The notes: generated by a model from the sequence alone, not told the origin. A stretch of 64,000 nt of DNA from Alphaproteobacteria bacterium UBA830 (GCA_002295635.1 DBHK01000027.1:5920-69919); one strand, 5' to 3'. Numbered from the stretch's first letter, positions 17,333-60,427 are shown. Program-made: numbers and translations.

Positions 17333-17428
17333 TGGCGGAAAAGAGTGGGAGTCGAACCCACCAGGGACGTCTAACGCCCCTCACCGGTTTTGAAGACCGG
17401 GCGCCCCACCGGGGAACGAATCTCTTCC
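17333..17428 (-). tRNA. selC: tRNA-Sec (anticodon UCA)
   Basis: 96 nt: GGAAGAGAUUCGUUCCCCGGUGGGGCGCCCGGUCUUCAAAACCGGUGAGGGGCGUUAGACGUCCCUGGUGGGUUCGACUCCCACUCUUUUCCGCCA. It has an 8-bp acceptor stem, a UCA anticodon in a CUUCAAA loop, a long variable arm and a GGUUCGACUCC T-arm. Its architecture is near-identical to E. coli selC. Confidence 0.85.
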
Positions 17429-28608: not shown

Positions 28609-28695
28609 GCGGACGTGGTGGAATTGGTATACACAACAGACTTAAAATCTGTCGGTCGCAAGGCCATGCGGGTTCAAGTCCCGCCGTCCGCACCA
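28609..28695 (+). tRNA. tRNA-Leu (anticodon UAA)
   Basis: GCGGACGUGGUGGAAUUGGUAUACACAACAGACUUAAAAUCUGUCGGUCGCAAGGCCAUGCGGGUUCAAGUCCCGCCGUCCGCACCA. Long variable arm, 7-bp acceptor stem, GGUUCAAGUCC T-arm, encoded CCA. Confidence 0.9.
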
Positions 28696-55342: not shown

Positions 55343-56125
55343 ATGGCCGCCGATCTATATGTCGGCGAAGTAATGCATCGGCGATCACGGCCGAAGGCAT
55401 ACACCTTCGTCTATCGAGTCTTTAATATTTTAGTGGATATAGACACCTTGGAAAAGGACGCGCGAGCGCGGCGCCTCTTTTCATATAATCGGTTCAACCT
55501 ATTTTCTTTCTTCGACCGTGATCATGGCGCCCGAGACGGATCGACACTACGCCCTTGGGTAGAGAATCATCTGGCTGCCGCAGGTTTGAGCCACGCATCT
55601 GCAAATATCAGATTGCTGTGCATGCCCCGGGTGCTCGGTTACGGGTTCGACCCTCTCTCAATCTACTACTGCAGCGATGATGCCGGTCAACTCGCGGCCA
55701 TTTTGTATGAGGTAAAAAATACGTTCGGCGACCAGCACGGATATCTGTTTGGGGTGGATAACAGTATCAAGGTTCCTCAGAAACATGTCGCTAATAAGGT
55801 TTTGCACGTGTCGCCATTAATCTCCATGAACGCACGTTATCAGCTTCGAACACAGTTGCCAGATGATAAGCTTGCTGTACTTATCCAGGAGTCGGATGAG
55901 GCGGGTGAATTTCTGGTGGCCTCCCTGACAGGGGAACGGCGGGATATGACCGACGGAGCTATGCTGAGTTGGTTTTTCAAAATTCCTTTGCTGACATTCA
56001 AGATAATTCTTGCGATTCATTTCGAGGCTATTCGGCTGATGTTGCGGGGTGTGAAGTATACAAAAAGGCCAGAACCGCCAGCACAGGATGTATCTCTGCC
56101 ACCCTCCCGAAGAGATATTGTTTAA
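55343..56125 (+). CDS. DUF1365-family protein (companion of cyclopropane-fatty-acyl-phospholipid-synthase-like methyltransferases)
   Basis: LYVGEVMHRRSRPKAYTFVYRVFNILVDIDTLEK matches the family N-terminus as recalled. TAATG overlap with the next gene. Confidence 0.7.
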   Translation: MAADLYVGEVMHRRSRPKAYTFVYRVFNILVDIDTLEKDARARRLFSYNRFNLFSFFDRDHGARDGSTLRPWVENHLAAAGLSHASANIRLLCMPRVLGYGFDPLSIYYCSDDAGQLAAILYEVKNTFGDQHGYLFGVDNSIKVPQKHVANKVLHVSPLISMNARYQLRTQLPDDKLAVLIQESDEAGEFLVASLTGERRDMTDGAMLSWFFKIPLLTFKIILAIHFEAIRLMLRGVKYTKRPEPPAQDVSLPPSRRDIV

Positions 56126-57306
56126 TGGGGACAAGTATCCGACTGGACGGCCGGTTGCGTGTGGGTTCTCTTGAGATTGAGCTCCCGAACAGTATATTTG
56201 TCTGCTTGACCGGTAAGGAAGATGGTCCGATAGCACGTCTTAAGCTAAATCGTTGGCGTGCCCTGACTAGGTTTCTCAGTGGTGGGACGGTTTCATTCGG
56301 CGAAGCCTTTATGGACGGTGACTGGGAATCTCCGAATCTGGCTAATGTGATCGAACTCGCAGCGCGCAATCTTCCGAGCAAACCAATGATGTTTCGTTCT
56401 CTATCACCGTGGCGCATAGGGGATCGAATTAAACACGTGGTACGACCAAATACCCCGGAGGGATCTCGAGAAAACGTCGCCGCGCATTACGACCTCGGCA
56501 ATGATTTCTATGCCGAATGGCTCGATCCCAGTATGACCTATTCATCTGCAATTTTTAAAGATGAGAATGCAGATCTGGAGAATGCCCAGACAGAAAAGAA
56601 CCGGCGACTGCTCGATCTCGCGATGGTAAAATCAGGAGATCGGGTGCTTGAACTCGGCTGTGGGTGGGGTGGTTTTGCTATTCAGGCGGCCCGGGATCGG
56701 GGAGTGCACGTCACTGGAATCACTGCTAGCAGGGCCCAGTTTGAAGAGGCCCGTCGGCGCGTTCAGATTGCAGGTTTGACCGAGCGTATTGATATTCAGC
56801 TGTGTGACTATCGTGATCTTAATGGCGAATGGGACCACGCGGTTTCCATCGAAATGATCGAAGCCGTTGGCGAAAAATATTGGGATACATACTTTGAGCG
56901 GGTAGCCGCCAGCGTTAAACTTGGCGGGACCTTTGCTCTACAGGCAATCGTGATTGATCACAACCGTTTTGATGCCTATCGTAAAAGCGCGGATTTTTTA
57001 CAGAAGCATATATTTCCGGGCGGGGCTTTGTTGAGCCCTGATGTGATGAAGGATAGGGCTACTTCCGCAGGGTTCTCGTGGAGAACCTCTAGAGGGTATG
57101 GATTAGATTACGCTACTACCCTGAGCCACTGGCGAAGACGCTTCGAGGATGCCTCAGAAAAAGTTGCAGCTCTCGGATTTGATGACAGGTTCCAGCGTTG
57201 TTGGTCATTTTATTTGTCCTATTGTGAAGGCGGGTTCCGGGCTGGAAATATAGATGTACTCCAAGTAGCCTTGGTTAGGGGTTCCAAAATTATTGGCTCT
57301 CATTAG
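56126..57306 (+). CDS. Cyclopropane-fatty-acyl-phospholipid synthase-family SAM-dependent methyltransferase
   Basis: VLELGCGWGGFA SAM motif and a CFA-synthase-like C-terminus (SFYLSYCEGGF). Confidence 0.85.
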
Positions 57307-58079
57307 CTTTTCTTTTTTGTAAGCCGATCCATTAAGGGCAAGTACAAGGCGTAGGGAAGGTGGCGTAATAACTTAACCGCCCAAGTGAACCGCTTGGGAA
57401 ATGTTACTTCAAAACGTCCACTTTTGAGGCCTTGGTAAAATGCCTCTGCAGCTTTGTCGACAGGCATTAGCGCCGGCATTCGGAAATCGTTCTTGTCTGT
57501 TAGAGGCGTTTCGATGAAGCCCGGATTAACGACCTGAACTTTCACACCGTAATCTCCGAGTTCCATGTGGAGCGCTTCGCACATATTGATCAGCGCCGCC
57601 TTGGTCGCGCCATATGCTGACGCAGTCCTCAAGCCTCGATACCCGGAAACGGATCCGACGACTGCAATATGCCCTGATCCACGGTCTACCATACTGGGAA
57701 TCACGGCATCTAGAACACGAATCACACCCATCCAGTTAATGTCGATCTGTTTCGAAAATACTTCCTTGGAAAAGATAGAGCCGTCTATCGGAATGTAGGT
57801 ACCAGCATTAAGAACGCAAAGATCAGGCTCGCCTTTATTGGCGACTAAATTTTTGTACGCCTTATTAACCCCGGCGGTATCGGTGACGTCGAGAGGAAGC
57901 GGAATGATGCTACCGGGATAGTCCTTCACCTCATTTGCTAGAGTGGCTAATTTTCTTTCCCCCCGGGCACTAGCGAAAACGACGGACCCTGACTTGGCTA
58001 GACGAAGCGCCAAGGCGCGACCAATCCCCGTGCTCGCGCCCGTGATCCATACTACGTTAAAATCAGCGTCTCCAACCAT
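57303..58079 (-). CDS. SDR-family oxidoreductase
   Basis: ITGASTGIGRALA ... YGATKAA. Confidence 0.85.
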   Translation of the reverse strand: MVGDADFNVVWITGASTGIGRALALRLAKSGSVVFASARGERKLATLANEVKDYPGSIIPLPLDVTDTAGVNKAYKNLVANKGEPDLCVLNAGTYIPIDGSIFSKEVFSKQIDINWMGVIRVLDAVIPSMVDRGSGHIAVVGSVSGYRGLRTASAYGATKAALINMCEALHMELGDYGVKVQVVNPGFIETPLTDKNDFRMPALMPVDKAAEAFYQGLKSGRFEVTFPKRFTWAVKLLRHLPYALYLPLMDRLTKKKS

Positions 58080-58143: not shown

Positions 58144-58494
58144 ATGTTCATGATGAGCGAGCCGCGTCTTAAGACCGATATATGGATACGAGCGCAAATT
58201 CGCTTGTGTGATATCAATTTTATTCCTGCGGTTGTAACTCGTCGGGGAGACAGCGACGCAGGGCAGGTTTTGATAAATCTTAACCGTCTCAACGGTACGT
58301 TTGAGCTATTTGCCAGAACTTCGACTCTCGACGGTACGCCGGCTTGGCGAAGCGTAACTGGCGGAAACCCCATGGATGAAAAAGCCGCTCTCACATTTAT
58401 CGAGCGCGAAGCGAACGTCGATCCTGATATATGGGTCCTTGAGATTGAGGATAGGGACCGGAAATACCAGCTCGATGGACCGGTTATCGTCTGA
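58144..58494 (+). CDS. DUF1491-family protein
   Basis: EPRLKTDIWIRAQIRLCDINFIPAVVTRRGDSDAGQVLINL is a conserved alphaproteobacterial family. Confidence 0.6.
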   Translation: MFMMSEPRLKTDIWIRAQIRLCDINFIPAVVTRRGDSDAGQVLINLNRLNGTFELFARTSTLDGTPAWRSVTGGNPMDEKAALTFIEREANVDPDIWVLEIEDRDRKYQLDGPVIV

Positions 58495-58571
58495 AGTTTC
58501 GTCAGTCTCTGTATTGGGCCCAACCCGCCTATGCTGTTTCCCTCATATCATGGTAGCAGATTTGAGTTTTC

Positions 58572-60014
58572 TTAATCCGGCTCTATGTCGGGGGACGCGA
58601 CCGGGGATCCTGTTCTGATTGCTATCGTCTTATTTGCGGTCATTTCCCACAGCGTGCATGGAACATTTCCCATTCCCAGACCTGACTGTCGCAATCCCGC
58701 GAGAGGCATCCAGTCAGCACGGAACGCTGAGTGGTCGTTTATCATCACCGCCGATGCATCGAGTTGATTACTTATCTCCATCGCCAATTTGACGTCTCGA
58801 GTAAATACAGCGGCCTGAAATGCTGTTGGAAGGGCATTAGCCCGGTTAACAGCATCTTCAGTATTAAACCATGGGTCGATACAGACAACGGGCCCGAATG
58901 CCTCTTCGGTCATGAGACGGCAATCGCTTGGAGGGTTGAAGATTACGGTCGGTGCATAAATTGTCTCCGATAATTGCTCGCCACCGGTCAATAGCTGTCC
59001 GCCTCCGTTGACCGCCTCCGTTACCCATTCATGTATTCTGCTCACCTCCTCCGGGTGGATCAGTGGGCCGACCTCCGTTTCCGGGTTCATCGGATTGCCG
59101 AGCCGAAGTCCCGCCGCTTTCATTGCGAGCTGGGTAGAAAATCGTGTGGCGACGTTGGTATGAGCGAATATACGCTGAACGGATTCACCCGCCTGACCGG
59201 CATGGTAAAAGCATCCCTTCAAGATTGCCTCACTAACCTCGTAAATGTCGGTGTCGCCGGTCATAATAACTGGGGCCGCACCGCCGTGTTTTAGCGCACA
59301 TCGGGCGCCAGGCGTGAGTTTGGAACGTAGAGACCAGCCCACACCAGCGCTGCCAACAAAGCTAAGGAAGCCGACGCGATGGTCCGTCGCTAGCCTTTCC
59401 GTCAATCCGTGGTCTGAAGTTACGATTGCTTGTGCCCAATCTTTTGGCAATCCGGCGTCATACAGTATTTCTAAAAAGGCTAGGCATGATAGCGGTGTCG
59501 AGGCTGCTGGTTTGACGATTACCGGACATCCCGCGGCCACCGCCGGTGCGACCTGATGCACGATAAGATTAATTGGGTGATTAAATGCACTGATCGCAAC
59601 CACGACTCCAAGGGGTTCCGTCCGGGTAAATGCTGTATGATGCTCTGTAGCCGGAGTCAGGCCGGCCGGCATTGATTGGCCATGATGACTACGTAGCGCG
59701 GCGATAACGCTTTTTATCGTATCAATCGAGCGAACTACTTCGACCCTTGTATCGATCAAGGGCTTACCCCCCTCAAGCACGGCAACTTTAGTAAGTTGAT
59801 CGAACCGTTTTTCCATAAGCAGGGCACAATGTTCCAGAATATCAATGCGTTGGTGTAGTGGTAACCAAGTATCACGCTGCCGGAATAACGCGTACGACGC
59901 CTCGAGGAGGGCGTCGATATCATCGGCAGTTTGTTCTGAAATGCTATCGACTGGGGTCAAATCGAAAGGGTTTAGGACAGTCAAAGTTTGTGGAGCCATA
60001 TCGGAGTATGTCAT
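58572..60014 (-). CDS. Aldehyde dehydrogenase-superfamily protein with both catalytic residues substituted (Glu to Lys, Cys to Gly)
   Basis: Overall ALDH fold motifs are present. The Glu signature reads ALKHGGAAP where xELGGKSP is expected. The Cys signature reads FYHAGQAGESVQR where xxxxGQxCxAxxR is expected. Confidence 0.75.
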   Translation of the reverse strand: MTYSDMAPQTLTVLNPFDLTPVDSISEQTADDIDALLEASYALFRQRDTWLPLHQRIDILEHCALLMEKRFDQLTKVAVLEGGKPLIDTRVEVVRSIDTIKSVIAALRSHHGQSMPAGLTPATEHHTAFTRTEPLGVVVAISAFNHPINLIVHQVAPAVAAGCPVIVKPAASTPLSCLAFLEILYDAGLPKDWAQAIVTSDHGLTERLATDHRVGFLSFVGSAGVGWSLRSKLTPGARCALKHGGAAPVIMTGDTDIYEVSEAILKGCFYHAGQAGESVQRIFAHTNVATRFSTQLAMKAAGLRLGNPMNPETEVGPLIHPEEVSRIHEWVTEAVNGGGQLLTGGEQLSETIYAPTVIFNPPSDCRLMTEEAFGPVVCIDPWFNTEDAVNRANALPTAFQAAVFTRDVKLAMEISNQLDASAVMINDHSAFRADWMPLAGLRQSGLGMGNVPCTLWEMTANKTIAIRTGSPVASPDIEPD

Positions 60015-60427
60015 TCTCTATCGAACCTGGGTGAGGTCGGTCACGTATCGGACCAACAACGCTTTAGTCAAATGCCGCGCGACAAGTATAGCGTTGGTTC
60101 CCGATATACGGAAAAGGTTAGGTTGTTGGCGGAAAGAGTGGGGTGTGCGTGCATACTAAATTGCGATTGCGGTATATATTCGGACGAAAAAAAAGTCTGG
60201 ACACTTCAGTTCAGCCGAGTTCTGAAAAGCCTGAGTGAGGGTCGCTCTCGAAACGACTTCCGCGATTTATGTCTAGGAAGTCGAGGGTCTTGATCACTTG
60301 TTTGAGCAATCCACCAAGCGCAGGCCTTTTTTGGTGAATTCATACTAGTCCCGCAGAGAAAGGTGGGTTTCCCCATTGCCCGAAATTGCTCTAAACTCAG
60401 AAGAAGCTTGAGGAGTTTTAATTTGCC

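Follow-up and report, generated by a model that had tools for sequence, protein, structure and literature searches.

Pseudoenzymes are already known in the aldehyde dehydrogenase (ALDH) superfamily. Vertebrate ALDH16A1 is one of them, and the bacterial ALDH16 from Loktanella is active (PMC12041015); ALDH16A1 has been proposed to act via protein-protein interaction (PMC12041015; PMC12405490). In the taxon-specific ALDH crystallins (ALDH1 and ALDH3 proteins of lens and cornea), the ALDH scaffold has been put to structural or binding use (PMC12041015; PMC10211241). Among the active members, the NADP+-dependent ALDH21 of moss oxidises succinic semialdehyde (bioRxiv 10.64898/2026.01.13.699213), and a review of the ALDHs places the group of ALDH21, Burkholderia ALDHs, and lactaldehyde dehydrogenase under cd07094.

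We analyzed the ALDH-like protein (the query) encoded in a 64-kb stretch of alphaproteobacterial DNA (the window), a probable bacterial addition to these pseudoenzymes. ALDH16A1 is its closest precedent: like the query, it has a full-length ALDH fold without the catalytic-triad residues, and active orthologues exist elsewhere. It differs from the query in belonging to another family (cd07111), in carrying an extra C-terminal domain, and in being eukaryotic, whereas the query is bacterial, lost its residues stepwise (Cys, then Glu), retains both its Asn and its cofactor motifs, and shows a loss that coincides with the loss of an operon partner. The ALDH crystallins are also unlike the query, being eukaryotic and abundant tissue proteins, many of which keep the triad; we see no sign of a bulk structural role for the query. 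Its nearest enzymes form a family of ALDHs linked to a ThDP enzyme, which occupies the same position in a marine alphaproteobacterial clade and shares 150 of 164 invariant residues with it. Members of that family have Asn, Glu, and Cys and usually adjoin a PRK08322-type gene, whereas the query has neither the Glu, nor the Cys, nor the partner. The structures closest to the query (ALDH21, 5mz5; 5jry, 5kf0, and 5j6b; and 3pqa) are all catalytic, unlike the query itself.

An ALDH fold lacking the nucleophile and the general base

Codon 6 of the open reading frame (Table 1) is a further ATG, from which a 475-aa form would start. Its product matches PF00171 (Aldedh) end to end (381.6 bits, E = 5.6e-114, residues 9-464 against profile positions 7-461 of 461), and the AF2 model (pLDDT 88.6, pTM 0.86, with confidence falling only over residues 111-130 and 431-450 and towards the termini) predicts the three-domain fold of the ALDH superfamily. 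The model reaches a TM of 0.90 to moss ALDH21 (5mz5), Burkholderia ALDHs, and the M. jannaschii lactaldehyde dehydrogenase 3pqa; identity to the closest solved structures is only 29-32% (phmmer E 1e-70 to 1e-77). The best NCBIfam match is lactaldehyde dehydrogenase (327 bits vs. a cut-off of 650 bits), and the query reaches none of the NCBIfam equivalog cut-offs. The nearest nonidentical database proteins are 71-73% identical, come from other species, and have Asn, Glu, and Cys all present. Full-length identity to the ThDP-enzyme-linked family is 49-73%, and the residues of the family-specific motifs (xLEHGG, FYHAGQ, and MINDH) are found in the query as H243, F269-Q274, and N426-H428; catalytic orthologues of this family (e.g., P0011, P0020, and P0032) carry ALEHGGAAP, FYHAGQVCVSVQR, and MINDH.

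HMMER alignments to 5jry, 5kf0, and 5j6b place ALKHGGAAP of the query on vLELGGNAA and FYHAGQAGESVQR on FYQSGQSCIGVQR, and a MAFFT alignment with the best 120 database homologues returned the same register, with 105 of the 120 reading ALEHGG and FYHAGQVCVSVQR. In this register, the nucleophile Cys of the G-Q-x-C loop is absent, its position being taken by Gly276 (GGT, 59187-59189, minus strand), where 5jry, 5kf0, 5j6b, and the 105 family members have an aligned Cys; the general-base Glu of the L-E-x-G-G motif is absent too, with Lys242 in its place. The adjoining Glu277 is new and specific to the query species. In the alignments to solved ALDHs and to homologues, neither a Cys nor a Glu has moved into the catalytic loop, and the only Cys residues of the query not common to the family, C63 (also in P0012, a sister species) and C453, both lie outside that loop. 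A tRNA-Sec is encoded within the window, so checking for a masked UGA was sensible; the two codons read GGT and AAA. Asn145 of the oxyanion hole is kept, as are the residues of the cofactor site (K168, G221-S222...G226, E371, F373, G374, and P375). The query is, in short, homologous to active enzymes and without their catalytic residues, as a pseudoenzyme should be.

These results bear out most of what the sequence-only reading had seen by eye. It had described a protein with the length and scaffolding of an ALDH, which agrees with the end-to-end PF00171 match, and had read Glu to Lys and Cys to Gly at the active-site signatures, a mapping that HMMER and MAFFT both reproduce. Its remark that the Gly codon is GGT and hides no UGA was correct, and the possibility it had raised that a shifted alignment concealed a catalytic Cys or Glu did not materialise in the profile alignment.

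Table 1 Features of the query locus, with positions counted from the first nucleotide of the window
Feature	Position	Strand	Remark
SDR	57303-58079	-	
DUF1491	58144-58494	+	Convergent with ALDH
77-bp gap, ALDH stop to convergent DUF1491 stop	58495..58571	.	552-aa ALS-like ThDP gene here in L002, L092, L094
ALDH-fold ORF, 480 aa, ATG start	58572..60014	-	Putative catalytically disabled orthologue of the ThDP-enzyme-linked ALDH family
Codons 371-373, E-A-F of EEAFGP motif (cofactor/nicotinamide side)	58896..58904	-	Kept
Codons 275-277, GCG GGT GAA = Ala-Gly-Glu	59184..59192	-	Val-Cys-Val in the family; from alignments and codon reading
Codon 242, AAA = Lys, general-base Glu position	59289..59291	-	GAA in P0012; Glu in the family
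Codons 220-226, V-G-S-A-G-V-G, cofactor-binding G-S-x-x-x-G turn	59337..59357	-	Kept save Ile220 to Val
Codon 168, AAA = Lys of VKPA motif (cofactor ribose-binding Lys of ALDHs)	59511..59513	-	Kept
Codon 145, AAT = oxyanion-hole Asn of SAFNHP motif	59580..59582	-	Kept
413-bp region upstream of ALDH, divergent from Trypsin/PDZ gene	60015..60427	.	

Independent assemblies and the deposited name

The source is a metagenome-assembled genome that uses selenocysteine (tRNA-Sec), two circumstances that would suit an artefact of sequencing, assembly, or binning, or a recoded codon. However, 24 or more contigs from 35 data blocks carry the exact query protein, the DNA is identical in two further assemblies (L001 and L089), the codons concerned are GGT and AAA rather than TGA, and the sister species has the same GGT. 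With so many independent contigs carrying the same protein, we discarded this reading, which the independent assemblies have already refuted and to which we attach practically no weight. The window differs from L001 at one position in 11.4 kb and is identical to L089; the query species is essentially clonal in public data, and a scan of metagenomes returned only the identical gene.

In the public databases, an identical protein from Alphaproteobacteria bacterium MarineAlpha11_Bin1 bears the name "Sulfoacetaldehyde dehydrogenase" (PPR12214.1). Judged by its residues and profile scores, this name (SafD) is an over-annotation: SafD belongs to the same superfamily, but the query scores far below the equivalog cut-off of the SafD model NF047626 (267.7 bits vs. 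700 bits) and has neither the catalytic Cys nor the catalytic Glu, and it almost certainly has no sulfoacetaldehyde dehydrogenase activity.

A conserved position without the ThDP-enzyme partner

The query is syntenic with Asn/Glu/Cys orthologues (71-73% identity) in L002, L003, L092, L094, and L095, and because it occupies the same chromosomal position as these competent ALDHs of related marine alphaproteobacteria, it is their positional orthologue. The conserved order is MFS-HAD-Trypsin/PDZ-(variable)-ALDH-DUF1491 (convergent)-SDR-CMAS (CFA synthase)-DUF1365-DUF1932. The DUF1491 and SDR genes that the sequence-only reading had named as flanks are both present, but they do not serve as functional context: they represent clade-specific synteny on other transcription units and are not functional partners. 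As DUF1491 is convergent with ALDH, the DUF1491, ALDH, and SDR genes form no operon. The informative context of the query is instead its missing ThDP partner.

We found the ALDH family in at least 80 species-representative genomes of GTDB from many phyla; nearly all of these sequences are 49-57% identical to the query, so they say little about close relatives. Among the matches listed, a gene for an ALS-like ThDP enzyme (~550 aa) lies directly beside the ALDH gene on the same strand in 46 of the 80 loci. This partner matches NCBIfam NF006187/PRK08322, "acetolactate synthase large subunit" (745 bits), and its closest solved relative is the catabolic AlsS. Within the marine clade, L002, L092, and L094 retain the order CCG-protein / ALDH / ThDP enzyme / DUF1491, and the triad is intact in all three. 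Together with the GTDB loci that have the partner (45/45 with an intact triad, among the matches listed), this makes 48 intact triads in the 48 partnered loci examined. The ThDP gene is missing and the triad intact in L095 and L003, and the gene is missing in all six triad-defective lineages, i.e., the query (NKG), P0012 (NEG), P0127 (NEP), P0061 (NMS), P0059 (SGG), and P0053 (SEC). Loss of catalytic residues is thus associated with loss of the partner.

At the query locus itself there is no adjacent same-strand gene of the PRK08322 type, and tblastn returned no match to a ThDP-enzyme gene or remnant within the 64-kb window, including the 77-bp gap. No ALDH paralogue was detectable within the window either; a relocated partner or a catalytic paralogue may lie beyond these 64 kb. 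None of the best 120 database matches for the ThDP-enzyme orthologue stands under the name of the query's MAG, as judged by record names. In relatives, the CCG-domain gene sits in the region upstream of ALDH; here that region (60015..60427) holds no remnant of it, no Rfam match or riboswitch, no unusual folding (z = 0.38), and no match to the sigma-70 consensus, and no clear Shine-Dalgarno sequence was seen for ALDH.

The nucleophile was lost before the general base

The query and P0012 are sisters in the NJ tree (96% bootstrap), and no other pair has a lower dS for any of the four genes in common (ALDH: 1.19; MFS: 1.25; HAD: 1.50; Trypsin/PDZ: 1.68). Long-branch attraction as the cause of this grouping was considered and rejected, given the lowest dS in four of four genes and rare states with identical codons. 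Gly276 is common to both species with the same codon (GGT, vs. TGC in relatives), and so is Ser96 (A96S, TCG in both); A96S, A293S, and D307N, all shared by the two, fall on sites at least 97% invariant in 105 catalytic members. Because the Gly276 codon and these three rare substitutions are common to both species, the Cys was lost before they split. Cys63 was gained in these two species only.

States specific to the query are Lys242 (AAA vs. GAA in P0012), Glu277 (GAA vs. GTA), Ala275, Leu438, and Asn450. Whether orthologues share the Lys and the Gly, a check proposed along with the initial reading, therefore has a divided answer: the Gly was inherited together with the sister species, in the same GGT codon, and the Glu-to-Lys change is unique to the query species.

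The Cys-less gene is under purifying selection

For the pair of the query and P0012, dN/dS is 0.146 (NG86), 0.170 (LWL85), 0.193 (YN00), or 0.169 (ML), with dS ranging from 0.94 to 1.19. Three flanking genes of the same pair have omega values of 0.05-0.13, so that of ALDH is 1.5-3 times theirs, and a catalytic ALDH pair has 0.05-0.10. Split by region, omega of the Cys-less pair is 0.091 for the catalytic domain and 0.106 for the cofactor domain, values that cannot be told apart from those of three catalytic pairs (0.04-0.13); it is 0.15 for the oligomerisation segment. The Cys-less gene is under purifying selection that is at most mildly relaxed, as tested on the Cys-less pair, in which the Glu-to-Lys change is confined to the query. 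Both sisters are full length with intact ORFs, and within other triad-defective clusters the members agree with one another (14/14 in NEP and 3/3 in NEG). Selective maintenance, a further mark of a pseudoenzyme, is accordingly found in the Cys-less sisters.

Single-base changes in the query ORF create stops in 3.3% of cases, and neutral drift over 25% of the lineage predicts 6.5 stops (probability of none: P = 0.0015). In a relative-rate test against the outgroup, the query stands at 0.67 vs. 0.52-0.59, and this apparent acceleration arises because the whole query genome is on a long branch. We do not claim an ALDH-specific acceleration, as the flanking genes show the same genome-wide long branch; the ALDH/neighbour terminal-branch ratio of the query is 1.28 (0.93-1.65), and catalytic lineages range from 0.61 to 1.69.

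Kept and changed sites across triad-defective lineages

We defined a family-invariant set of 164 positions that are at least 97% conserved in the 105 catalytic members, which deviate from it at 1.05 positions per sequence on average and at 8 at most. The query deviates at 14 of the 164 (A96S, L148I, I220V, A234T, E242K, V275A, C276G, V277E, A293S, D307N, R320H, F438L, G450N, and V465A). It keeps the polar residues H146, N149, H153, K266, Y270, and H271, which we take, by ALDH2 numbering, to line the substrate tunnel.

The other triad-defective lineages have 13-33 deviations among the family-invariant positions, with recurrent changes at 142-155, K168, I220, S222, K266, V275, F399/Q400, D434, A439, T454, and M458. 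As mapped in the alignment, these recurrent changes affect the predicted active site and tunnel and, in the end, the cofactor site as well, and the remaining scaffold is conserved. Position 220 presumably matches Thr244 of ALDHs, which orients the nicotinamide for hydride transfer. Of the 13 triad-defective sequences, 12 differ from the family here; only P0053, in which Glu and Cys survive, has retained the Ile. Older Cys-less lineages lose the cofactor-site residues K168, S222, and F373, which suggests that selection in the long run preserves something other than cofactor binding.

Discussion

Our favoured explanation, which we hold with moderate confidence, is that the query is an intact pseudoenzyme with a selected noncatalytic role, descended from a normal NAD(P)-dependent ALDH. 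The ancestral ALDH would have been paired in a two-gene unit with a ThDP enzyme resembling acetolactate synthase, the presumed source of its aldehyde substrate. The ThDP gene has gone from the locus in the query lineage, Gly took the place of the nucleophile Cys before the query species and its sister separated, and later, in the query species only, the general-base Glu changed to Lys and the neighbouring Val to Glu; K242 and E277 may now be joined by a salt bridge where the active site used to be. No thiohemiacetal should form without the thiol and no deacylation should follow without the Glu, so that canonical ALDH chemistry would be excluded. The ALDH scaffold, in contrast to these residues, has been kept intact. 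The conserved cofactor motifs, the oxyanion Asn, and most of the pocket residues suggest binding of NAD(P)(H) and possibly of the former ligand, and the query probably still binds NAD(P)(H) or a ligand. Its role is most likely such binding of NAD(P)(H) or the former ligand, or that of a subunit with a structural or regulatory task; partnering some other protein is a further candidate.

Succinic semialdehyde as the ancestral substrate, in a 2-oxoglutarate decarboxylase/SSADH bypass, is a lead only; the one observation that points to it is the SSADH activity of ALDH21, which is a structural neighbour of the query, though a distant one.

The query could still be an enzyme, with a cofactor site, Asn145, and a polar pocket that support an altered chemistry without the thiohemiacetal (e.g., direct hydride transfer to or from a different carbonyl), or one that uses a relocated nucleophile such as Cys63. 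The strong constraint on the catalytic domain (omega 0.091) would agree with this, as would the retention of the pocket residues H146 to H271 listed above and of the cofactor residues, the novelty of Cys63 in the query and P0012, and the K242/E277 charge swap, which resembles changes at remodelled sites. Cys63, however, is predicted by the AF2 model to lie in the N-terminal helix H53-69, which, going by general ALDH architecture, we assume to be far from the catalytic loop. Position 220 has changed in every triad-defective sequence but P0053, other Cys-less lineages also lose pocket and cofactor residues, and we know of no precedent for Cys-independent redox catalysis in the ALDH fold; we consider an altered enzyme unlikely. 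ALDHs are obligate dimers or tetramers, and a more specific version of the pseudoenzyme explanation makes the query a noncatalytic subunit that hetero-oligomerises with a catalytic ALDH paralogue elsewhere in the genome and regulates or stabilises it. Constraint over the whole protein, including the oligomerisation segment (omega 0.15), fits such a subunit, and a review of pseudoenzymes names an inactive ALDH2 variant that modulates the wild-type enzyme in heterotetramers (PMC10211241). But the window holds no ALDH paralogue and the nearest database relative (73% identical) is from another species, which leaves this version improbable in our judgement.

A gene on its way out would also lack its partner, and the active-site missense changes might be the first stage of pseudogenisation, with too little time elapsed since the ThDP enzyme was lost. 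The query has 14 deviations at family-invariant sites vs. about one in catalytic members, its omega is somewhat above that of the flanking genes, Glu to Lys, Val277 to Glu, and Phe438 to Leu are species-specific and could be recent, and catalytic residues have been lost repeatedly in partner-less lineages. Set against this, the Cys loss is older than a split at dS ~1 whose two descendants are both full length, the overall omega of 0.15-0.19 falls to 0.09 in the catalytic domain, the level of catalytic pairs, and neutrality over a quarter of the lineage would have left the predicted 6.5 stops. NEP (45 cluster members), SGG, and NMS, which are triad-defective too, are likewise intact and internally conserved. 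We therefore regard decay as quite unlikely. The sequence-only reading had deduced a nondehydrogenase role (a pseudo-enzyme, a binding protein, or different chemistry), and the omega of 0.15-0.19 sides with it in favouring a retained pseudoenzyme or an altered function over decay; the role itself we infer.

Returning to the pseudoenzyme explanation, a broader form of it is tentative and, on balance, doubtful: the ALDH of the widespread ThDP-enzyme/ALDH module may have been converted several times, and independently, to a noncatalytic protein maintained by selection, each time after loss of the ThDP partner. These conversions would have occurred in at least three or four marine alphaproteobacterial lineages (NKG/NEG, NEP, SGG/AEP/HDP, and NMS). 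If this is true, the scaffold has a second function that needs no catalysis and, in the older lineages, not even the cofactor site, and the query protein represents an early-to-middle stage of the conversion trajectory.

The lineages compared here offer a natural series from enzyme to pseudoenzyme: partner and triad present; partner lost and triad intact; Cys lost; Cys and Glu lost; and cofactor site lost. They also draw attention to an uncharacterised and phylogenetically widespread two-gene unit of ThDP enzyme and ALDH. Because the public record says sulfoacetaldehyde dehydrogenase, metabolic reconstructions of this abundant marine lineage would credit the query with an activity that it almost certainly does not have. 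If a defined noncatalytic function is found for the query, it would be among the few documented bacterial ALDH pseudoenzymes.

Degenerate active sites among orthologues of the query ALDH

Some other positional orthologues of the query, carried by related marine alphaproteobacteria, have triads that degenerated independently: the residues at their Asn/Glu/Cys positions read NEP, SGG, NMS, AEP, HDP or SEC. The ORF is intact in every one of these triad-defective orthologues, although each departs from the family at 13-33 otherwise invariant sites. In the NEP cluster, with its 45 members, GQDP is kept in all of those read that cover the motif (14/14).

The query and its sister-species protein P0012, both of which lack Cys276, have in common a derived cysteine, Cys63, found only in these two proteins; the family residue at this position is Thr or Ala. 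Cys63 lies in an N-terminal helix in the predicted model of the query, and is probably unrelated to catalysis. A second ALDH ORF in L035 has Phe aligned at the catalytic Cys column (NEF); this ORF may encode a dead paralogue in tandem with the family ALDH, or else a distant ALDH that is misaligned.

Features of the window and of related loci (L numbers)
Feature	Location	Strand	Remarks
Second ALDH ORF	L035 10458-11879	+	GTDB alphaproteobacterial MAG; directly downstream of family ALDH
Triad-defective positional orthologues	P0041/P0049/P0050/P0127 (L007, L008); P0057/P0059/P0060 (L096); P0058/P0061 (L093); P0056; P0062; P0053 (L091)
Cys63 codon of ALDH	window 59826-59828
Trypsin/PDZ-ALDH interval	window 60015-60427; L003 4620-5153; L006 3565-7811; L091 2032-6750; L094/L095 upstream
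DUF1365 and cyclopropane-fatty-acyl-phospholipid-synthase (CFA synthase) genes	window 55343-57306	+	overlapping or abutting
ThDP-enzyme gene beside family ALDH	L002 7618-9276; L092 8640-10298; L094 6496-8154
Selenocysteine tRNA	window 17337-17428	-	Rfam RF01852, 75.7 bits
Second tRNA	window 28609-28692	+

Gene neighborhood

The interval that separates the ALDH from the Trypsin/PDZ gene is a hot spot for insertion and deletion among relatives. It is a 413-bp spacer without insert in the window, and the inserts of relatives include carbonic anhydrase, a CCG-domain protein, dienelactone hydrolase, Sbt_1 (adjoined by a P-II gene in L094), and a salicylyl-CoA 5-hydroxylase-like FAD/OYE fusion accompanied by a PaaK-like ligase, to which a MarR regulator is added in L006. 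On the other side of the ALDH, the mechanical ORF call for CFA synthase (445 aa, TTG start) runs ~150 bp into DUF1365, whereas the called gene is 393 aa; an amine oxidase gene joins this cluster in relatives L094 and L095. The window also carries a selenocysteine tRNA, and UGA is therefore read as Sec somewhere in the same genome.

An ALS-like ThDP enzyme (NF006187/PRK08322) is paired with the ALDH family in 46 of the 80 GTDB loci among the matches listed, and the two-gene unit spans Proteobacteria, Planctomycetota, Bacteroidota, Gemmatimonadota and others. Identity between the ThDP enzymes of Rhodospirillales-like MAGs is 72-92%, exceeding the conservation of the ALDH. The label "acetolactate synthase" is probably not the true role of this enzyme, and the role of the two-gene unit appears to be uncharacterized so far.
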